Below the pieces are notes generated by a model. The model ran no database searches, had not been told where the DNA came from, and saw nothing but the letters and a program-made list of their open reading frames with translations. The translations under genes and the position numbers were made by a program. From positions 1,088,001 through 1,152,000 of the forward strand of contig CAWCKJ010000004.1 of assembly GCA_963796105.1 (NCBI GenBank): a stretch of 64,000 nucleotides of DNA. Direction: 5' to 3'. Origin of the DNA: a candidate division FCPU426 bacterium (GTDB taxonomy: Bacteria > Oederibacteriota > Muellerivitia > Muellerivitales > Muellerivitaceae). Shown one piece after another: positions 3,477 through 62,007 of the stretch (positions within the stretch are counted from its first letter, which is position 1; the number at the start of each line of letters is the position of its first letter).

Positions 3477-4462
3477 TATGCTTATGCACAAAGTGACCGT
3501 GCTGTAATGGGTTTTGCTAAGGCACATGCGGTCAAAGCACGGTGAAATAAGGAATCGGGATCATGACGACGGTTGAACCGATAGGCATATTCACTTAGAT
3601 ACCGGCCTAAATACTTAGCATCAACGCCATGATGAGTTCCAATGATCCAGGCCTTGGCGTTGGAAATGAACCGGTGTACCCAGGGCAACCAACTTTCCAA
3701 CTCTTTCGGGTCATTGGCCATCACCCGGTAGTCTGCCTCCACTCCTTTGAGTTCACGCAAGGCTGGCGAAGCATCTGTGTTGAGGAAAGAGCCTTTTTCC
3801 ATAGTCTGATTCACGAATTCCTGGCTCTCCCACTTGGTTTCCATAGCTACCTTCACCTTGGCAAAACCCGCTTTTTCCTTCTTGCAACCATTCTCATCCA
3901 CCCATTCCTTGCTTTCCACCGCCACCAAGACTTCCACTTGGTTTTCCTTGGCCTTTTTCCCAAAAACCGCCCCATCCAACTCAATGACGCCCTTTAGAGT
4001 ATAGCTTTCGTCCTTTTGCCTAAGACCTTCCCGGATCTTATGCAATAGAAGCCATGCCGAATGATCCGAAAGATTTAAATGCCGCTTCAGTTCCAGGGCC
4101 GAAATACCCCGTTTGCCCTGCATCATCAAACTGATGGCCCTGACCCAGGTTAAAAGAGGCAGCTTGGAGCTTTCAAAAATCGTCCCGGCGCGAAGCCGAA
4201 GACGTTTCCGGCAATAGTCACATTCCCTCACTTCAGGCTTGGCCTGGTGTTGCCAGAAGCTTTCGCCCTCACATTGGGGACAAACAAAGTCTTTCCCGCC
4301 GAAACGGCATCTCCACACCCATTGGCGGGCTTCTTCTTCCGTGTGGATTTTCCTCAGAATTTTAATGCTTTTCATCCGCTGGTAGCTCATGTACCACCTC
4401 CCGTAGCGGACAGTATACCTATGTATTCCTTTATTTCAAGGGTCACTTAATACAGAAGCATG
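3477..4462 (-). mobile_element. IS1595-family insertion sequence (986 bp)
   Basis: Imperfect 22-bp TIRs (TATGCTTATGCACAAAGTGACC vs CATGCTTCTGTATTAAGTGACC, 17/22). 8-bp TSD AAGCTCTG at 3469-3476 and 4463-4470. Confidence 0.92.
3482..4390 (-). CDS. IS1595-family transposase
   Basis: Zn ribbon (CPQC...CDYC), AGTIFESSKLPL, IELDG, TD, HHGV...YLSEYAYRFNRR. Confidence 0.95.
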   Translation of the reverse strand: MSYQRMKSIKILRKIHTEEEARQWVWRCRFGGKDFVCPQCEGESFWQHQAKPEVRECDYCRKRLRLRAGTIFESSKLPLLTWVRAISLMMQGKRGISALELKRHLNLSDHSAWLLLHKIREGLRQKDESYTLKGVIELDGAVFGKKAKENQVEVLVAVESKEWVDENGCKKEKAGFAKVKVAMETKWESQEFVNQTMEKGSFLNTDASPALRELKGVEADYRVMANDPKELESWLPWVHRFISNAKAWIIGTHHGVDAKYLGRYLSEYAYRFNRRHDPDSLFHRALTACALAKPITARSLCA

Positions 4463-24779: not shown

Positions 24780-25022
24780 ATGGCTGCGGCTAAAATTGCC
24801 ATCACCATCGATCGGGAAATCCTTAAAAACGTGGACCGGTTGGTGGAAAAGAAAATTTACCCCAACCGCAGCCGGGCTATCGGAGACGCGCTTCGGGAAA
24901 AAATCGCGAGGCTGGGCCGGAACCGTCTCGCCAATGAATGCGCTAAATTGGATCGAAAAGCGGAGCAAGCCCTGGCGGATGAGGGCTTATCCAGCGAGTT
25001 GAAAAATTGGCCAAAGTATTAA
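24780..25022 (+). CDS. Ribbon-helix-helix (CopG/NikR-like) antitoxin
   Basis: KIAITID...VDRLV...YPNRSRAI; overlaps the toxin gene. Confidence 0.88.
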
Positions 25023-25345
25023 GGGGTGATATTCTCTGGGCGGATTTGAATCCCGTCAAAGGCCATGAGCAATCCGGCTTAAGGCCGGTTTTGATATTAA
25101 GCCATGACGTTTTTAACGAGAGATCAGGCACGGTCATCGCCGTAGCCCTCACCAGCCGTGAGCCCAAAGCCGGTTTTCCCCTCACCTTCGGGCTCAACTC
25201 CCGAAAATTACCGAAAAAATCCTGGGTTAAAATCAGCCAAATCAGGACCTTGTCCGTGGAGCGTTTGGGCGTCAAATTAGGCCGGGCGACTCCCGAGGAA
25301 ATATCCCAAATTGTTGAGGGACTGGAAGAAATTATCGGCGATTGA
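25007..25345 (+). CDS. mazF: PemK/MazF family endoribonuclease toxin
   Basis: [39 protein letters not shown]. Confidence 0.95.
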
Positions 25346-27178: not shown

Positions 27179-28822
27179 CCTGAATTTTGCACCGAGTTTA
27201 CCGATTCCGTGGCCAGATCGGCCTGAATCGGGACCCGACAGTGGCCATTTTCATCAGAAGTGAACTTATGTGCAAAGAATTTTTTGCACCAAGCCACTTC
27301 TAGGCCGCCCTGGGTCTTTCCAATCGTTTTCGATCAAGGTATTTGAGGAAACCCAATAGGCCCGCTGTCCTATCATCATGGATTGAATACCTCACCACAT
27401 CCCGATGGCCGTGATACTGGATTCGGGCGGCTACAAAGAGCATCTTCAAACGTGCGATCCGAAGGGTATGGTCCGGCATGGTGATCTGTTCCTTCTCCTG
27501 TGGCTTCTTTCCCGGTCGCTTTTCTTTTCCACAATGGCCCACCATTAGTTTCATCCACCTCCAGAGGTTGTAAGCCAGCATCACGATCTGGAAAAAAGCA
27601 TGGTGGCTTTGGAAACTCTTAGAGGGAATTGCTAATAACCCCTCCCGTTGCGCCTCACCAATCAGGTTTTCCACATCCGCGCGCAGGTCGTATTCCTCAA
27701 CCACCCGATGGGGTGCTCCCAGACAGTTGGTCGCGAAGATTCGGTAGACATATCCTTCCATTTCAGGAAGGCTCAATTGTTTCTCCCGCGCTTTTTCATC
27801 CAGCGTCCTCATCGCCACAAACCGGACTGGTTGTTGCCAGCCTATGGGTTGATGGACACATTCGTTGTATTCGTGTTCTCCATGGCGGTACCAACCCTTT
27901 TTCGTGAAAGGCGGGTCATGCCGCTTGTTCCCGAAGATGAAAGAAAACCCTTCTTTTTCACAGGCTTTCACGCTTTCCCAGCCGATCATTTCACCGTCAC
28001 CGCGCACCAGAATCGTCCGGACACAGGACGGCAAGAGTCGCCGGAATTGTCTAATTTGGCGGGCCACTTCCTCAGAACTAAGGGTGGTTCCGCGTCTTTG
28101 GGTTCCGCACAAATATTCCCGGGTTTCCTGGAGAAAACACAGAATGGGCCTCAGTCCCTTCTTGCCCCGGTGCTTGGGGTTGTATCCTTTTCGGCTTCCC
28201 TCGATATTTCCGTAGACCGTTGCGGTGGTGGTATCGATGTTGATCTCCACCTTCTTGGGGGCATATTTCACCTGTCCCCAAACCTTGGCCCGTAACGCCC
28301 CACTCAGATTCAGCAACGATGCCGACTGCCCGATCCCCAGCGACCTCAGGTATCTCCAAAAAGTTGTCACTACCGGCAACAAGGGAACCCGCAGTAAACC
28401 GCACAGCATGACCTCACCCCGCAGGTAGGCAAAATGGCCAAGTCTTTGGAACCCGATGAAAAGAAGCATTAGGATGCCGCTTACCATCCGGTAGTGGCCC
28501 AAATTCGGAAGGCGTTTAGGTGCGGCATAGTGTTTTTTGAATTCCCGCTCAAAATCAAGAAGGTCGAACATCTTCGCCAATGCCAACAATCCGCCAAAAG
28601 CTGTTAGGCGGTCTTCGCAAATACCTACGGGAGTATTGGCCGTAATCTTGGGCGCGATTCTCCCGTTTCGATTGGCTTTTTTCTGGACTTGCGGGTTTGA
28701 TTTCTGAGGCGTATCTTGACGTTTCACCATCTGGGGGACCCTCTTTTAGGATGAGTTGGCTTCGCAACCCTTATCCTATAATGGTTTCCTAGATGGTTTT
28801 TTTATTAGGCGCAAAATTCAGG
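27179..28822 (-). mobile_element. IS1380-family insertion sequence (1644 bp)
   Basis: TIRs CCTGAATTTTGCACC / CCTGAATTTTGCGCC. 5-bp TSD TTATA at 27174-27178 and 28823-28827. Confidence 0.93.
27300..28730 (-). CDS. IS1380-family DDE transposase
   Basis: LTAFGGL, INIDTT..VYG..EG...GYNP, VRGDG, Y..RADVENLIGE, LAYNL. Confidence 0.92.
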   Translation of the reverse strand: MVKRQDTPQKSNPQVQKKANRNGRIAPKITANTPVGICEDRLTAFGGLLALAKMFDLLDFEREFKKHYAAPKRLPNLGHYRMVSGILMLLFIGFQRLGHFAYLRGEVMLCGLLRVPLLPVVTTFWRYLRSLGIGQSASLLNLSGALRAKVWGQVKYAPKKVEINIDTTTATVYGNIEGSRKGYNPKHRGKKGLRPILCFLQETREYLCGTQRRGTTLSSEEVARQIRQFRRLLPSCVRTILVRGDGEMIGWESVKACEKEGFSFIFGNKRHDPPFTKKGWYRHGEHEYNECVHQPIGWQQPVRFVAMRTLDEKAREKQLSLPEMEGYVYRIFATNCLGAPHRVVEEYDLRADVENLIGEAQREGLLAIPSKSFQSHHAFFQIVMLAYNLWRWMKLMVGHCGKEKRPGKKPQEKEQITMPDHTLRIARLKMLFVAARIQYHGHRDVVRYSIHDDRTAGLLGFLKYLDRKRLERPRAA

Positions 28823-30404: not shown

Positions 30405-31067
30405 CTATCCCAGCCGGGCTGAAAGCTTCTCCCATTCCTTCGGGGGCAACAGCTTTTGGGCCAAACCCTTGATCTTTCCGAAAACCTCGGTTGAGGCTAT
30501 CTGTTTCAGGTTCGTAAGGAATAAGTATCTCTCGGACTTGTTCATGGCGGGGATCATGTAACTGAGCATCATGGCCATGTCGTTGGGAAGGGTGCGGGCA
30601 ATGATCTTTTGGAAACATTTTTTGATTTCCTCGTCCGAGAAATGCTTGTAGAAAGCATCGGTGATCGCCGTTTCTTCCCGGTCCATATGGGCCAGGTAGT
30701 CGGAAAGGAAACGGTTAAAGGCCAGGTAAAACCCGTGACCGGCCTTCTCCCGGTTCGGGATTTGCGTTATCTTGATCCAATCCTCCTCCAGCTGGTCCAG
30801 TTCCGCTTCCAGGCGCCGGTGGTCCTCCCATTCCCGGGAAACGGCCTCGGGGGCTCGTTCCTCCAACTGGGGGAATTGGATTTCATCCTCGTTGGCCGCG
30901 TGTTCCCTTAAAAAATGAAGAATAGTCTCTAACTCCACATCCAAGGCCTTTACCTCGGCCCCGTCCGCCCAATCCACCTGGCCGATCTTAAGCGCCAGCT
31001 CCAACAGCCCCCGGCGCAGACCCTTATGGACATTGGTGAAAACATCCACCCTCTGGTTAGAATCCAT
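30405..31067 (-). CDS. Hemerythrin (HHE) domain protein
   Basis: VHKGLR, EHAANEDEIQFP, DH, HMDREE metal-ligand pattern. Confidence 0.85.
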   Translation of the reverse strand: MDSNQRVDVFTNVHKGLRRGLLELALKIGQVDWADGAEVKALDVELETILHFLREHAANEDEIQFPQLEERAPEAVSREWEDHRRLEAELDQLEEDWIKITQIPNREKAGHGFYLAFNRFLSDYLAHMDREETAITDAFYKHFSDEEIKKCFQKIIARTLPNDMAMMLSYMIPAMNKSERYLFLTNLKQIASTEVFGKIKGLAQKLLPPKEWEKLSARLG

Positions 31068-31322
31068 TCTCTCCCCCTGGCGTTGAAATGGACTATTTTC
31101 ATGTGTTTCCTACCACAGGCATGTCTGGAAAAGCAAAGGGCTTACCCTAGATATTCACCCCAGGGACTCGGAGATTCAGGAAAAGTCGTTATTTTTAATA
31201 AAATTTTCTTATTAACAGGCTGTTAAAAAAGCCCGCTTTGGGGACTGATTAAGCAACTTGTTAATGCCCTCGCGTGGGCATGGGCCAACCCCTCGGCTGG
31301 CCGATCATGTTCTCAAGGATCG

Positions 31323-32034
31323 GGGCTCTTGCCAATTTAGTTTCACTAGGAACACCTTAATGCCGACGGAAATGTGGGCGGTTTATCTCCCCTTTCCGAC
31401 GGAAAACAGGTCTCCTGCCAATTTAGATTACCAAGTTACCACCCATGCCGACGGGAATGTGGGCAGGTTATCTCCTCTTTCCGACGGAAAACGGGCTTCC
31501 TGCCAATTTAGTTTACCGGGTTATCCTCCTTGACGATGGAAATACCGGTAGGTGTCACCAGGTTATCCCGGGTTACCGACGGAAAACCGGGCTCCTGCCA
31601 ATTTAGTTTCCCGGGTTACCGCCATGCCGACGGGAATGTGGGCAGGTTATCTCCTCTTTCCGACGGAAAACGGGCTTCCTGCCAATTTAGTTTCCTGGGT
31701 TATCCTCCTTGACGATGGAAATACCGATAGGTGTCACCAGGTTATCCTAGGTTGCCGACGGAAAAACAGGTAGCTGTCACCAGGTTATCCCGGGTTACCG
31801 ACGGAAAAACCTGTCTTCTGCCAATTTAATTTACTGGGTTACCGCCCATAATGACGTGAATGTGGGCAGGTTATCTCCACAGATTTCTTATAAATCTGCG
31901 CTGGCAATCATTGCCCTCGGCTTGATGCCTCGGGCAGCCAGCCCTTGCCGACGGAAATCAGGGCTCCTGCCAATTTAGTTTACCGAGTTACCGCCCGTGC
32001 CAACGGGAAACCTGTTTTCCTGCCAATTTAGTTT
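31323..32034. repeat. Complex non-coding tandem repeat array (33/43/52-bp units)
   Basis: About 14 CGACGG(A/G)AA anchors and 8 copies of TGCCAATTTA(G/A) (31330, 31416, 31501, 31596, 31680, 31819, 31968, 32021). Includes a 179-bp near-perfect tandem duplication. Confidence 0.92.
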
Positions 32035-32207
32035 GATGATTTAGCTTATAGAACTTGTAAAGAAAAAATTGGAAAATACTCACATTTCGAAATGGCTTTA
32101 GGTCTATTTGCTGATTGGGTATATCGCTCTTATCTCCCGATTTTGTCCATCGGGTGGACTTAATTGGCAAGAAGCCGGGCCTTTAGCCTATGGATCGGAG
32201 GGATCCA

Positions 32208-32657
32208 ATGGTTCAAGAATCGCCTTTTATGCGTTTTCTGAAATTCCTCGATGGTTTGGCAGAGGATGAATCCCCCAGAGTGCGCCCAGCACCAGCCCCA
32301 CCCCCAAAACCGGCGCCTATCCAATCCGAGGCATACAAAAACAGGAAGCTGGGCCGAAAACTTCACCGGGAAGGTATCAAGGATATGCAACGGATCGCCG
32401 ACTTGATTGAACGCTGTGGGGAAGCCAAGCCGGGCGAACTCGCCCAAAAGCTGGGCATGTCACGCAGTACCCTGACTTATAACCTAAAGCGGCTGATGAG
32501 GCATGACCCGGGGTTTGAGGGGCATAGACGGGACTTTTGGACCCGTCGGCCGCTGAGGGCGGTGTTGGGCGAAAAGCGGCTTGAGAAGTTGGGGTCAGGC
32601 AATAGCGTGCGTTACCGTATTGTTCAAGAGCCGGTGAAAAAGTCCCCGGAATCCTAA
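32208..32657 (+). CDS. Winged helix-turn-helix DNA-binding protein
   Basis: PGELAQKLGMSRSTLTYNLKRL HTH and LEKLGSGNSVRY wing; very basic. GGAGGG precedes ATG 32208. Confidence 0.75.
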   Translation: MVQESPFMRFLKFLDGLAEDESPRVRPAPAPPPKPAPIQSEAYKNRKLGRKLHREGIKDMQRIADLIERCGEAKPGELAQKLGMSRSTLTYNLKRLMRHDPGFEGHRRDFWTRRPLRAVLGEKRLEKLGSGNSVRYRIVQEPVKKSPES

Positions 32658-32664
32658 TGAGTCT

Positions 32665-33126
32665 TTAAAGATCCTCGGGTTGGATCGTCCAAAGCAGTTG
32701 GTTGCCTGCCTCCGCCCTTTCCAGGGCGACTACGCCCGCAGTGGAAAAATCGAAAGCCTCCGGATTGCTCACGTAATCGAGGAAGAGCGCCATGAGGGAT
32801 TTTAAAAAAGGCATGTGGCTGACAAGCATCAAATCCCCTTGGGTCCTGTGGATTTCCATGAAGATTTCCCCGACCTTTCCCTCCGGCACCAGTTCCTTCT
32901 TCTCAACCAGGGCTTCGGGGGGAAGGCCCAACAACCCATGTATGACCTTGGCGGTCTGGGCCGCACGGGGCAGGGGGCTGTGCCATAGGGTGAAGGGGGT
33001 TATTTTTCTCTTTCTCAGGGCCGAACCCACCTTGGCCACGGCTTTCTCGCCCTTGGGGGTCAAGACCGAGGGCTTGCCGGCTCCGGGGGACGCGGCGTTC
33101 CCGTGGCGCATCAAGTACAGCCTCAT
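32665..33126 (-). CDS. sixA: Phosphohistidine phosphatase SixA family
   Basis: MRLYLMRHG, LTPKG, HSPLPRAAQTA, LVSHMP. Confidence 0.88.
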   Translation of the reverse strand: MRLYLMRHGNAASPGAGKPSVLTPKGEKAVAKVGSALRKRKITPFTLWHSPLPRAAQTAKVIHGLLGLPPEALVEKKELVPEGKVGEIFMEIHRTQGDLMLVSHMPFLKSLMALFLDYVSNPEAFDFSTAGVVALERAEAGNQLLWTIQPEDL

Positions 33127-34014: not shown

Positions 34015-35258
34015 ATGAAAACCCGGGTTATTTTGTTTATTCAATTTTTAGGCGCATTTATTGCCATAGGTTTACCCGATCAAGGATGGGCTCAAAACAT
34101 CATTGAGACGGATCTCGGGACACAACCACCCTCGATATTGGTACAAAATCTCATGGGCGGCGGAGTGGCCTTCAGCAACGTGACTTACCAGGGAGTAGGG
34201 GGATCATCCGGCACTTTCACCGGGGGAAACGGAATTATCGGGTTCGGTTCGGGAATCATCCTCAGCACGGGGCTTGCCGCCAGCGTGGTGGGCCCCATGC
34301 GGACGAGACTATGAGCACCTGCAACGGGACACCCGGTGACACGGATTTAACCGCCCTGGCGGGCGGGGTTCAAACTAATGACGCGACGGTCCTTTCCTTT
34401 GATTTTGTCCCGACTTACAACACGATTTCCTTCCAATACGTATTCGCCTCGGAAGAATACAACGAATTCGTCGACTCGATGTTCAATGATGTTTTCGCTT
34501 TTTACATCAACGGGATCAATGTGGCCCTCATACCCGGCACCAACACGATCGTCTCGATCAACAATGTCAACGACTGTGTCAATTCGGCCTATTTCATCGA
34601 CAACGTGGGAAGTTCCCAGGGAGGGGGTTGCGGGTTGAACGTCCCCTCGGCGAACTTGAACGCCTCCTTGAACGGGTTGACCACCGTATTGACGGTGAAC
34701 GCCTCCGTGAATCCGGGCGTAAACAACCATATCAAACTGGCCATTGCGGACGTGGAGGATTGCGAATTGGACTCGAACGTCTTCATCCAGGCCAACAGCT
34801 TCGCCAGTGTCCTTACCAACACGCCCACGGGTACCCCCGCGTTCACCCTAACCCCCACCCCGACTCCGACAATGACGGATACTCCCACATTTACCCCGAC
34901 GCCAACCAATACACCCACGATCACTCCGACTTCATCTTTCACACCAACCCCCACTTTTACGCCAACAGTGACCCCCACGCCCACTTGCGAGGTCCTTGTT
35001 TGGCCCGATCCTTATAACCCGGCTCACGCGGTGGGGGGGGTGTTCAAGGTCAGTTGCATGCCTCCGGGCGCGATCGTGAGCATCTATACGCTCTCGGGAG
35101 AATACGTGAACCAGGCTGGGGAATCGCGCGGCCTGGTGATTTGGGATGGCCGGAACAAGTACGGTTCTTACGTATCAGCGGGCATCTATTATTATGTTGC
35201 CCAGCAGGGCGGGAGAACCCTCAAGACGGGAAAGTTCCTGGTGACAAACGGTTATTGA
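34015..35258 (+). pseudogene. Secreted choice-of-anchor-L-like protein with Thr/Pro linker and FlgD-Ig/T9SS-like C-terminus, split by a 1-nt frameshift
   Basis: Signal peptide and GIILSTG in ORF 34015-34314. [23 protein letters not shown]...DSNVFI, TPTP and WPDPYNP..WDGRN..G...SAGIY in ORF 34311-35258. One extra A near 34297 gives GPNADETMS in frame. Confidence 0.75.
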
Positions 35259-56982: not shown

Positions 56983-59900
56983 ATGGCCTTAACTCAAGCT
57001 AAAGGGATTTTAACGGATCAACGAATGGGGAATAAGGAAACTTTTTCAAATTTTAATTCTTTTTCCAAGGCGCTTCAGGTTTTTTTAGCGCTAATGGGTT
57101 TCATGTTGTCATGCGGCGCTCCTTCTCAAACCAAGGCCCAATGCACGCCTAGCTCCGCTAAGATTTGCGTATCCAGCGACGACTGGTCCCAGGTCTATGT
57201 GGGCGGCGTTTACCTGGGACAGATCAATTATTGCAACTGGGACGGCAGCGGCAGTTGTCCCCCGGGCTGCATCACCGTTCCCACGTCCCTCTTAACCGGC
57301 TCCCAAGTTTATCTCAGCGTTTATACCCAAAACACCGCCTGCAATAACCTTTACTCCTCCTGGGACCTGGACATCACCTGCTCCAACGGCCAGCACTCCG
57401 AGATCACCAGCGGAAGCGGCGGCCTCAAGATGGATTACATCAGTTCGGGGAATCCCACGACTCCCCCCGCCACCAACTGGTACGCGACCGACTACAGCAC
57501 CAGCGGATGGGGCAGCGCGTCCCAGGTCAGCGCCACTTCTTCCGAATGCTGCTGGGGCCAGAGCCTTTGGAACCCCGTGAGCGGCGCGAGGGTTCCTTAT
57601 GTATCCACGGACGCGAACGGGGACTACAGCACCAGCAACTGCAACGGAGCTTTGTTCTTCTCGCAAGCTGTGGCGATACCGGCGTCTTCTACGACTCTGG
57701 GCCCCCCAAACTTCACGGTTGGGAAATCGGTCTGCGGCGGACCCAACGAATCCAGCAGCAATATCGGTTACGAGTTTTGCCTGACGGTCTGCAACACCGG
57801 CGGCCCCCAGACTGGCGCCGTCACCCTTGCGGATAACATTAGTCAAAGCTATTGGCAATCACAATCTTTCTTTGCCGGTGGAGTTTCCGTCCAAAATGGG
57901 AATTACATCGCCACCGAGCCCTACGTCAGCGGCCAGGGGGGAAGCGGGGTTTCCATCATCTGGCCGGAAGGGATCGCCGGAAATTCCTGCGTTACCTTCC
58001 AGGAATACGCGTGGGATTTTAATGGTATGCAAAATAATCAATGTACAACAGCAACCAACAATTTTAACATCGAGGGAAAAACCTCCAACACGGTTACTTT
58101 CAACATCCCTTGCTGGACCCCGACCTTTACCTGGTCCAACACGCCGACTTATACTCATACTTTTACCTATACCCCGACATTTACCTATACCCCCACCCCG
58201 GCGCTAACCCCCACCTTTACCCATACTTACACTTATACTTACACCTATACTTATACCTATACCGCGACTCCGACCCCCACCCACACTTATACCTATACCC
58301 CGACCATCGCGGTCACGCCCACCTTTACCCACACCAACACCTACACCTATACCTATACTCCCACCCCCACCTACACTTATACCTACACCCCGACCCCGGC
58401 TGTTACGCCCACCTTCACCCATACCAATACCTACACTTTCACGTATACCTTTACGAATACACCGACGCCCACTCCCACGAGAAGTCCCACCCCCACGCCC
58501 ACACCCACAGTATCGCCAACCCCGACCCCGACCCGGACCCCGACTCCCACACCAACCGTCACGCCGACTCCCTCCCCGACGAATACGCCTTCTCCTACAC
58601 CGACCAGGACCCCCACCCCGACCCCGACCATCACACCGACACCCACCCCTACGGTGTCGCCTACCCCGACTCCAACACGGACTCCGACTCCCACGCCAAC
58701 CATTACGCCGACTCCCTCCCCGACGAATACGCCTTCTCCTACACCGACCCGCACTCCTACTCCTACGCCTACCATTTCGCCTACCCCGACACCGACCACT
58801 ACCCCGACCCCCACGCCGACTCGAACCCCGACCCCCACACCCACCACTACGCCGACCCCCACGCCGACCAATACTCCGACCCCGTCCCCGACATCCACGC
58901 CAAGCCCGACTCCGACCCGAACCCCGACCAACACTCCCACTCTGACGCCGACCCCTACTCCAACCCTGACGCCGACTCCGACCCCAACAACAACCCCGAC
59001 TCCCACCCCGACCCGGACCCCCACACCCACGCCCACCAATACGCCGACACCCACGCCGACCACGACCCCGACACCTACTCCAACAAGGACTCCGACTCCA
59101 ACCCCTACTAACACCCCGACACCGACACCCACAACGACGCCGACACCTACGCCCACGAACACACCCACCAGGACACCCACCCCCACTCCGACCCCGACTC
59201 CTACCACCACGCCGACGCCCACTCCAACCCATACGCCGACGATCACCCCTACCCCTACCAATAGCCCTACGGGAACCCAATCGCCCACGAACACACCTAC
59301 GATCACCCCGACCAAGACCACAACCCCGACACCCACCAACACCCCAACCATCACGCCTACACCGACTCCGACCAATACACCGACAAGAACACCTACTCCC
59401 ACGTCAACTCCCACCCCGACGACCACGCCCACTCCTACTCCCACGAATACGCCAACCCCCACACCCACCAATACGCCGACGCCCACCCCCACGACCACTC
59501 CGACGCCGACTCCCACGAGAACCCCGACCCCGACACCCACCAACACGCCGACGCCGACCCCGACCACGACGCCGACTCCCACATCCACCAATACCCCGAC
59601 GCCGACCCCGACCCGTACGCCCACTTCGACCCCCACGATCACGCCGACACCCACTCCGACGAGAACCCCGACTCCCACGCCCACCAACACCCCCACTCCA
59701 ACCCCGACGACTACGCCAACTCCTACGCCTACCAGCACCCCGACCATTACCCCGACACCGACGAATACCCCTACGGGAACCCAATCGCCCACGAACACGC
59801 CCACCATCACCCCGACCAAGACGCCGACCCCGACTCCCACACCCACCCCAACAGTGACTCCTACGCCCACACCCACTAACACTCCGACGAATACCCCGAC

Positions 59901-62007
59901 CAGCACACCCACGCCGACGTCCACCACGACTCCCACGCCGACATCCACATCTACCTTGACCAAGACCCCAACTAACACGCCCACGCCTACCCCGACCACC
60001 ACTCTCACGTCGACTCCAACCGCTACCCCCACTGTCACGCCGACTCCGACCGACACCGAAACCGGGACGACGTCCCCCACGAACACCTTTACGGTCACCC
60101 CGACGCCGACGCCTTCCTCGACACCTACCAATACTTCTACCTCCACCTCTACGCCTACTCCGACCGCCACAGCCACATCGACACCGACAAATACTTCGAC
60201 TGATACTCCAACCTCAACCTTGACTCCAACCTTGACTGACACTCCCCCGCTTACCTTTACCCCGACCAACACCTTCACGGATACGTCCACTCCGACGGAC
60301 ACTTCCACCCCCACTAACACCAACACACCCACGAACACGCCGACTAATACCCCCACTCCAACACCCACTAACACTCCCACCAACACCAATACCCCGACAG
60401 ATACCGCCACACCGACCAATACCTATAGCCCCACTAACACGCCAACCAATACCCCGACCCCTACTCCCACCAATACCCTGACCAACACCAATACGCCCAC
60501 TAATACTCCCACCGCTACCAACACCTCTACTCCTACCAACACCTATACGGCCACCAATACCCCCACCAATACAAATACCCCGACTAACACCAATACTCCT
60601 ACCAATACGCCTACTCCTACTCCCACCAGGACGCCTACTAACACTTCCACTCCCACGAATACGCTTACAGCCACGAATACACCCACTAATACCAATACCC
60701 TGACACCTACCCCCACGGCGACCTTCACTCCCACCCCCACGCCTGCCGCGGTATTGGCCTTGCAAAAACAGGAGTCGGAATCAACAGGTTCCTCGGGGGA
60801 TATGGTGACCTATACCTTGAATGTCAATGTTTCCAACGCAAACGCTCCTGGAGTAGTGGTGCAGGACCAACTGCCTCCCAACTGCACTTTCACGGCCTTT
60901 GGGGTCTCACCAGCAGGAACATCGGCCGTAACCACCGTTTCAGGCGGGGTGACCATGATGAACTGGACCTTACCCACTCTTACCCCAGGAAGCTACCAAT
61001 TGACTTATACAGTCTCGATTAACAGCTTCACGCCCGCGGGACCCATTGTGAACTGCGCGGTCTTAAACTATCCGGGAATCTCACCATTGAGTTCCTGTGC
61101 CACATTAATGGTGACAGGGAGCTACACGGTGAAGATCGGGGTATATAACGAGGCAGGGGAACTGGTAAAGACACTCTTAGTGACCCAATATTCCCAGCCT
61201 TTGGTGGACCTGCAGTTGAAGAACGGGGATCTGATTAATGGGCTGAATGATCCCATCCTGATATATGACCAGAATACCCAGATCACGGTGTGGAACGGGA
61301 CAGACCAGAACGGGAACCCGGTGCCGAATGGTGATTATTACGTGAAAGTGGACAATGTGGACTCTTTCGGGGTGGATAAGAGCGTGGTATTGAACGTGGT
61401 GGTGAGCAGGTCGTTGGAGAAGGTGACGATCGACATCTACAACGAGGCTGGAGAGATAGTGGACACGCTCTACAGCGTGGTGGAGGACCCTCAAGGGGCG
61501 GTGATCACAGGGGTGAAGCTGTCAGGGACGGTGTTGGAGCCGGGATCGCCGACGGATGGGAACCTGGTTATCACGACAAATAACGGTGTGACAGCGACAT
61601 GGACGGGATATTCCTCAAGCGGGGCGGTGGTGCCGAACGGAAAATACTTCATCGAGGTGCACTCCACCGACGGAAAAGACGGGGAGACGGTGATCGTGAC
61701 GTCGGTGATGGTGCTGAACAACGCGAAACAGACGGTACCGAAAGTCTGGGCCTATCCGAACCCGTTAACCGGGGGATTCAGCCAAGTGGAGTTCCAGGCC
61801 TCAAATCTTGGGATCAACCTGACGGTGAGGATATATGACCTGGCGGGTGAACTGGTGACGGAACTCAAAGGCGCCGGGGGAACGAGCCGGGTGACCTGGA
61901 ACGCCGCGGGAATCTCAAGCGGGCTTTATATCGCCAAGGTGGAACAGAAGGATCTCACCGGGAAAATCATCGCCAAGCAGACACTCAAAATCCTGGTGGA
62001 AAAATAA
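56983..62007 (+). CDS. Giant secreted/surface protein: Cys-rich N-terminal domains, about 875-aa Thr/Pro repeat, DUF11-like domain, three FlgD-Ig/T9SS-CTD-like modules
   Basis: Hydrophobic signal ending [12 protein letters not shown]...VVVQDQLP, three (I/V)Y(N/D).AGE.V...W.G/A....G.Y modules, YPNP and terminal KILVEK. Confidence 0.88.
58117..60744 (+). repeat. Coding low-complexity Thr-x repeat (TYT, TPT, TNT)
   Basis: Continuous ACN-CCN-type codon repeats with varied third positions. Confidence 0.95.

Follow-up and report, generated by a model that had tools for sequence, protein, structure and literature searches.

A helically phased repeat mosaic carrying putative sites of winged-helix and ParB-like proteins with predicted membrane anchors in a candidate division FCPU426 bacterium

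In the window analysed here, a 64,000-nucleotide stretch of DNA from a candidate division FCPU426 bacterium, a row of repeated units directly precedes the gene of a small winged-helix protein, referred to below as W. This layout raises the questions of which proteins read the units and why their spacing follows the turns of the DNA helix. A first-pass annotation of the letters proposed a single module, in which the whole row would be either a phased array bound by a cognate protein or a source of processed ncRNAs, associated with an "orphan" adjacent gene. In this work, the locus was compared with related loci in other genomes of the bacterial family and phylum; the features located in the window are collected in Table 1.

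The three unit types (A, B and C), their lengths and their order agree with that first description, and so do the anchor positions, save that the CGA starts given there sit one base earlier. The 14 anchors run from 31365 to 32002 with spacings of 33, 52, 33, 52, 43, 51, 33, 52, 43, 43, 53, 97 and 52 bp, and the eight B cores, one single direct candidate W half-site per B unit, lie at 31329, 31415, 31500, 31595, 31679, 31818, 31967 and 32020. The proposed helical phasing at 10.6 bp per turn holds: this is the best period both for the B cores (R 0.96) and for the anchors (R 0.89), and at 10.5 bp the fit drops to R 0.16 and 0.47, respectively. The significance of the phasing is p ~3e-4 when each spacing is jittered independently and ~0.005-0.02 when only the distinct lengths are counted. 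With 7-15 stop codons per frame in all six frames, the array is non-coding. It is not a CRISPR array either, as had already been concluded from the letters: the units are modular and recurring, there are no unique spacers, and no cas family was found among the 47 window proteins scanned, which also lacked Rep and ParA families and comprise all but a handful of short ORFs and a single very long gene rich in Thr and Pro.

Table 1. Features of the array, the W gene and their surroundings (positions in the window)
Feature	Position	Strand	Remark
Flanking hemerythrin-domain gene	30405..31067	-	non-conserved neighbour
Phased mosaic array, A + B + C units	31329..32034	+	
Leftmost B half-site, core TGCCAAT	31327..31341	+	putative W site
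A unit 1	31365..31397	+	
Further A units	31450-31482, 31629-31661, partial one from 31853	+	
B unit 1	31398..31449	+	
Further B units	31483-31534, 31578-31628, 31662-31713, 31800-31852, 31950-32001, 32002-32034	+	
C unit 1	31535..31577	+	
Further C units	31714-31756, 31757-31799	+	
Dispersed 94-bp segment with short hairpins	31857..31950	+	
AT-rich gap, 33% GC	32035..32129	+	likely promoter region
Canonical 45-bp split-palindrome element	32130..32174	.	putative operator
Ribosome-binding site GGAGGG	32197..32202	+	sequence; homologues start at same motif
W gene, 149 aa, winged helix	32208..32657	+	Pfam HTH_24 above cut-off
Recognition helix GMSRSTLTYNL	32454..32486	+	Thr90 is the site-tracking residue
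Flanking histidine-phosphatase (SixA-like) gene	32665..33126	-	non-conserved neighbour

The dispersed 94-bp segment inside the array is 95% identical to a copy after sixA in G001, a genome of the same genus, and a 74-bp part of it has 10 other BLAST matches in the genome of the window (G000). No match to the sigma-70 consensus was found in the AT-rich gap. The 45-bp element beyond this gap and the genome-wide occurrence of A and C units had been overlooked in the first-pass annotation. Before the array, a short element at 31157-31180 resembles, by eye, a motif bordering several other A/C arrays, and a BLAST search with 31151-31320 gave a single other weak match. Elsewhere in the window, a MazF-like toxin gene preceded by a small partner, a DDE transposase present in multiple copies and a transposase of the IS1595 family were noted at 24780-25345, 27300-28730 and 3485-4126, respectively. 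The stretch 58200-60700 has long coding tandem repeats of Thr/Pro type, such as characterise many of the large genes of this genome. In G001, a single uninterrupted ORF (L128:2816 onward) takes the place of the overlapping ORFs 34015-34314 and 34311-35258, and the gene in the window therefore appears to be frameshifted.

The W protein consists of a predicted N-terminal amphipathic helix (residues 7-19), a Pro-rich linker, a basic helix and the winged helix. In the AlphaFold model (pLDDT 81) an inserted helix (residues 107-120) precedes the wing, in line with the insertion between HTH and wing that had been read from the translation. Searches by Foldseek, VIA-align, PDB sequence and Atlas returned nothing beyond generic winged helices; several top fold matches are tied, with Z-alpha domains among them (Z 9.4), and AspA is a weak match. 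Several familiar identities were considered and rejected. For MarR, ArsR and MntR regulators, all scores fall below the curated family cut-offs (MarR 20.7 against 24.6, HTH_5 18.9 against 22, MntR 28.7 against 153, HTH_metalloreg 21.8 against 55). For a Rep initiator, this protein of 149 aa with one winged helix gives only generic HTH matches, and for ParB, it is a winged helix matching neither the ParB CTPase domain nor the ParB-type HTH.

The gene is not an orphan: 54 representatives of W clusters reached E<=1e-10 in a whole-library search. Within the bacterial family, 13 of the 31 genomes have homologues, against none of the 68 from the other families of the phylum, and related-locus searches of general genome contigs and of viral contigs gave no further relatives. 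There is no conserved neighbour among the W loci, which, together with the patchy distribution, would be unusual for a core segregation factor. A TubZ or ParA motor is absent beside every W gene, and no HUH (Y1) transposase family was detected in the 54 ORFs scanned, of 76 listed, that adjoin W genes. Among individual neighbourhoods, those of L013 and L015 include cas1 at a distance of up to 1.5 kb from W, and DUF1016 precedes W in L014, L015 and L030; the DUF1016/YhcG gene upstream of W in L014 holds three variable in-frame palindromes (L014:415-550).

If W reads part of the array, its homologues should have related sites upstream, and such sites are present and track the recognition helix. 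In the window, the 45-bp element has a degenerate left arm (CCGAT core), a 21-bp partly self-complementary spacer and an intact right arm ATTGGCA, and it ends 33 nt before the ATG of W. A split palindrome of ~45 bp, CCAAT-N21-ATTGG with 12-bp arms, was found within 450 bp upstream of W at 18 of 26 loci, compared with 28 of 3236 control genes in G000, for which the permitted spacer range was slightly narrower. Although spacers of 8-25 bp were allowed, 25 of 32 elements have one of 21 bp, and at 11 W loci the distance from the end of the element to the start is 18-33 nt. The residue X in the recognition-helix pattern S[ST]L-X-Y agrees with the two bases before CCAA at all 21 loci with a site, in four classes: T with TG (7 loci), A with TT (8), I/V with GT (5) and K with GG (1). 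The class of each locus was judged by eye, on its proximal copy or on the majority of its copies; one copy is off-class in each of L023, L030 and L036. The count excludes L014 and L038, which are W loci without a site, L026 (contig edge), L028 (divergent siteless paralogue), L032 (truncated gene), L022 (no ORF) and P0002-P0004 (no DNA).

At least three coupled residue-base changes are needed to account for these classes. On a tree built without the helix columns there are 6 changes, and none of 200 bootstrap trees unites the TG or the TT group. L031 and L013 suggest independent residue-base switches, but a single clade is still compatible with the AU tests (p 0.11 and 0.17). The TG-class element pattern had no matches in viral contigs, and the TT-class pattern matched four loci over general genome contigs, namely two known W loci and two in Clostridia without W.

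Direct half-sites are phased in the relatives as well. The locus of the closest homologue (L012) contains eight direct copies resembling the half-site and, at the end of the array, an inverted one, an arrangement shared with the window; its seven pattern-matched half-sites are spaced by 31, 84, 53, 31, 32 and 42 bp, and those of L027 by 53, 53 and 32 bp, all corresponding to whole turns. Successive palindromes are phased too (16 distances from loci some of which are related, R 0.61 at 10.5 bp, p ~0.002). The strict B motif has 17 matches in the genome, 8 of them in the window array, and four more B half-sites with similar flanks lie in other A/C mosaics. Judged from these sequence comparisons, the B units and the 45-bp element are very probably the sites of W.

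The A and C units lead to other genes. A heads occur as 63 sites at 19 loci and C heads as 62 sites at 14 loci, with a union of 24 loci, and the largest two of the pure arrays immediately precede paralogous genes, at G000:C4:724386 (C) and C4:1196536 (A). The C units of the window are identical to this home C array in 38-40 of 41-43 bases, and the A heads to the home A array in 25/26 or 27/31; unit B3 aligns with the home C array in 33 of 41 positions and corresponds to a C scaffold extended by about one turn. The dispersal of A and C, with home arrays before other genes, leads us to reject the reading of the whole array as private to W and gives no support to one module with the adjacent gene. 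The earlier proposal of a cognate phased binding array is thus supported for the B units and not for the array as a whole.

The genes behind the home arrays belong to a ParB-like family present in 12 of the 31 genomes. Among the 23 loci inspected of 51 matches listed, upstream arrays accompany 19 of the 20 that lack the ParB N-terminal domain and none of the three that retain it. Periods of 21-22 or 43 bp were obtained for 15 of 17 measured arrays, with differing heads. The top Foldseek matches of the structural model are ParB/Noc/Spo0J DNA-binding domains (prob 1.0, TM ~0.5, E 0.03); the link to ParB by sequence is weak (hhalign prob 0.8, no PDB match at E<0.1). All five G000 members examined have one transmembrane (TM) helix each. 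The A and C units are therefore likely the sites of ParB-like TM proteins encoded elsewhere, an assignment made from position only. W and the ParB-like family have unrelated folds and appear to follow the same strategy, and the window array mixes putative sites of both. Since B tracks the W helix and A and C match the ParB-like home arrays, the row likely loads several membrane-anchored proteins. Two further ParB-like TM genes, G000:C2:369093 and C12:331845, have upstream GGAAC arrays in which an irregular 24/8-9/11 pattern adds up to 43-52 bp. On the contig that carries dnaA (G000:C4:858896), the best ParB match, with an ATPase gene ahead of it (C4:1578839-1580192), is ~720 kb away from dnaA.

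A third family combines a multi-TM protein with a C-terminal winged helix (G000:C2:258738-259535 and loci L046/L074, L075, L076, L084, L085 and L090). Members with a GSPRRTVIRNL-type helix have upstream TGGCAC(A/G)AT repeats, and the G000 member, with a different helix, has TTGCGCGA repeats. An upstream motif of the family's own accompanies all 6 loci that combine the N-terminal membrane part with one helix type. The arrays in L074, L075 and L085 have a 17-bp period and are out of helical phase.

The mosaics may be rebuilt over time. At the orthologous site after sixA in G001, W is missing and a different mosaic is present together with a transposase and recQ, a gene that in G000 adjoins another C mosaic. 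This difference would fit recombination between arrays. The genome comprises 16 contigs, and the W locus and both home arrays lie on the 1.6-Mb contig that carries dnaA, the W locus 260 kb from that gene. A and C loci are enriched on this contig (15/24, p 0.002; IS-like control 27/66, p 0.09), and B loci number 3 of 6. The other motif families show no enrichment there, and therefore no origin-specific claim is made; GC skew did not place the origin.

A further element of a tether, a membrane anchor on W itself, was sought at the protein termini. A conserved helix with the consensus GFLKxxxG opens W, which we take to resemble the MinD membrane-targeting sequence; for comparison of membrane helices, no MinD scored above cut-off in G000. 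The helix has a hydrophobic moment of 0.65, and under a profile trained on 17 homologues, with the window W excluded, it scores at p 0.006 against 1279 control N-termini. By contrast, a generic amphipathicity rule is unspecific, firing on 221 of 767 control N-termini (29%) and 170 of 767 C-termini. Among 57 representatives a helix passes the threshold at the N-terminus in 27 and at the C-terminus in 2, and 2 have a TM helix; none has two anchors, and of the 26 that pass no threshold some are fragments. Members without the N-terminal helix often end in a similar helix (L021, L027, L031) or in a TM helix (L020, L028). As far as such patterns go, the N-terminal helix of W may insert into the membrane. 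In the W paralogue L028 (G000:C7:92813-93373) the recognition helix has diverged, a TM helix stands at the C-terminus and the upstream element is missing; a related gene in G001 adjoins the same dehydrogenase-type gene.

The 45-bp element has a further property that bears on its origin, as it forms a long hairpin: 86.5% of cells are paired in 38 aligned elements, double changes in the stem number 193 against 79 in shuffles (0 of 500), and the variable inner spacer pairs in 79% against 37% (41 elements). Of 15 loci picked by the motif alone, 10 have a well-formed element, and one of these (L039) has a new W gene directly behind it, the N-terminal part of which stands at a contig end; the remaining motif-picked elements are solo copies, mostly within repeat mosaics. 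The hairpin, the solo copies and the lack of a conserved W neighbour support mobility. REP/REPIN sequences with their RAYT proteins are likewise dispersed intergenic hairpins with conserved arms, found near the cognate gene and solo. The W element resembles them in being a dispersed intergenic hairpin with solo copies, and differs in that the cognate protein is a non-catalytic winged helix, the arrays hold helical phase, and no HUH transposase flanks W among the ORFs scanned. Two other kinds of palindrome were noted: short variable-stem hairpins bounded by AATT, then AAAATAAGGG, between 45-bp elements (L023, L024, L025, L034, L040, L047), and in G000 a second dispersed split palindrome with a GTACCGAT-type arm and a 22-23-bp spacer, in ~13 copies (for example at C3:306605, C4:895258, C4:1420115 and C6:188578).

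Several known systems share parts of this design. Noc of Bacillus subtilis is a sequence-specific binder of palindromic, chromosomally dispersed sites (NBS) and brings DNA to the membrane by an N-terminal amphipathic helix, for which a heterologous one can substitute; TM-anchored Noc was non-functional and harmful (PMC4331003). W may have a helix of the same kind, and the model of the A/C-associated family resembles Noc/ParB DNA-binding domains. Unlike Noc, W is a winged helix rather than ParB-like and has no CTPase or spreading domain; its putative sites, in phased arrays before its own gene, differ from paralogue to paralogue and are accessory and patchy; and natural TM versions exist in its family, in contrast to the harm done by a TM anchor on Noc (PMC4331003). 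RicO of Staphylococcus aureus bridges a specific motif to the membrane through a DNA-binding domain and a terminal amphipathic helix, its ricS sites being nine single non-palindromic 18-bp sites near the origin without arrays (10.64898/2026.03.06.710092). W may be likened to it by architecture, while the putative W sites are palindromes and arrays. In the case of RepE of the F plasmid, direct repeats and an inverted pair shortly ahead of the gene are bound by its own product for autorepression (PMC13028717). The window similarly has direct repeats and an inverted operator-like element before W; however, W is a single small chromosomal winged helix with no Rep family match and a predicted membrane helix. 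TubR, a winged-helix protein coating the repeat centromere tubC, and AspA of pNOB8 (PMC9178275) are analogous to W as a putative winged-helix array binder, and differ by the motor that W genes lack. By the features tested W belongs to none of Noc, RicO, RepE and TubR. By analogy, the W system would be Noc- and RicO-like in architecture and RepE-like in site layout.

The reading that we favour, at about even odds, is that the phased mosaic serves self-repressing, Noc/RicO-like DNA-membrane tethers, with B units for W and A and C units for the ParB-like proteins. Under this model, W would bind the B half-sites and the 45-bp element, repress its own gene through that element just before the ribosome-binding site, and enter the membrane with its N-terminal helix, while ParB-like TM proteins encoded elsewhere would bind the A and C units. 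Binders loaded on one face of the helix would hold the array DNA at the inner membrane, and the phasing would exist because all binders share one surface. The mosaics may form by recombination or conversion between arrays with common sub-repeats, the phase being kept. A wider reading is possible though on balance doubtful: a modular, evolving DNA-membrane addressing system, in which at least three unrelated kinds of anchored DNA-binding protein (the amphipathic winged helix W, the TM ParB-like and the multi-TM winged-helix proteins) would have private sites following a readable residue code, recombined at dozens of loci into mosaics that are helically phased for W and the ParB-like proteins, and would thereby clamp loci to the membrane and shape the chromosome.

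The observed mobility keeps alive a competing explanation by selfish gene-plus-site cassettes, in which REP/REPIN-like hairpins and arrays are copied by resident transposases or recombination and W only represses itself, with no useful tethering. The variable self-complementary stem, the motif-picked elements with a W gene beside just one, the patchy W genes with their fragments and shifting neighbours, and the IS elements contained in many mosaics speak for such cassettes; we nevertheless find them rather unlikely, given the whole-turn spacing kept across unrelated heads and two unrelated protein folds, the membrane segments retained or shifted between termini, the lack of an HUH transposase family among the 54 scanned ORFs beside W genes, and the hairpin-free direct arrays of the window, L012 and L027. 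It is improbable that W is an ordinary soluble transcription factor and the array a cooperative operator or DNA-wrapping enhancer for W and the divergent hemerythrin gene, with other regulators contributing. Such a role agrees with a generic winged-helix fold, an operator-like element ahead of the ribosome-binding site and similarly flanked B half-sites in four other mosaics, but there is no conserved target or neighbour, the solo elements sit in repeat mosaics rather than ahead of a coherent gene set, and the conserved terminal helix and the TM versions would be left unexplained.

The 45-nt hairpin could also act as RNA, W binding it as a structure in the 5' leader, or else extrude as a cruciform, the array being transcribed or processed. 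The compensatory stem, its position 18-33 nt before the start codon and the Z-alpha domains among the fold matches of W point in this direction. However, shuffled sequences fold about as well as the array (z -1.12), Rfam gives 0 matches, the direct half-sites are spaced by turns of the DNA helix, and template switching between strong inverted arms can perfect stems without selection; this explanation is very unlikely, and the processed-ncRNA array of the first-pass annotation gains no support. An assembly artefact or a decayed coding repeat is hardly credible. No public contig examined spans the array, and two DNA runs with small shares yielded no more than short pieces; yet its copies are diverged rather than identical, unit lengths of 43 and 52 break the reading frame, stops occur in all frames, similar architectures are found in other genomes, and a 212-bp contig of run X2, possibly not independent of the assembly, is identical to 32014-32225 and thereby connects the last B unit with the gene start.

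A literature search, which covered few subscription papers, found no published description of W, its residue-base code or the mosaic. The known proteins that link particular DNA sites with the bacterial membrane are few, Noc and RicO among them, and this winged-helix family seems to have arrived at such a design on its own, with exchangeable anchors and a candidate one-residue specificity code having four natural site classes. Even the selfish explanation, if true, would leave an undescribed transposase-free gene-plus-hairpin cassette. If the tethering model is true, the family would provide orthogonal protein-site pairs for DNA tethering and would let one ask directly whether helical phasing arises from binding to a common surface, and the dense non-coding repeat landscape of this uncultured lineage would be explained.
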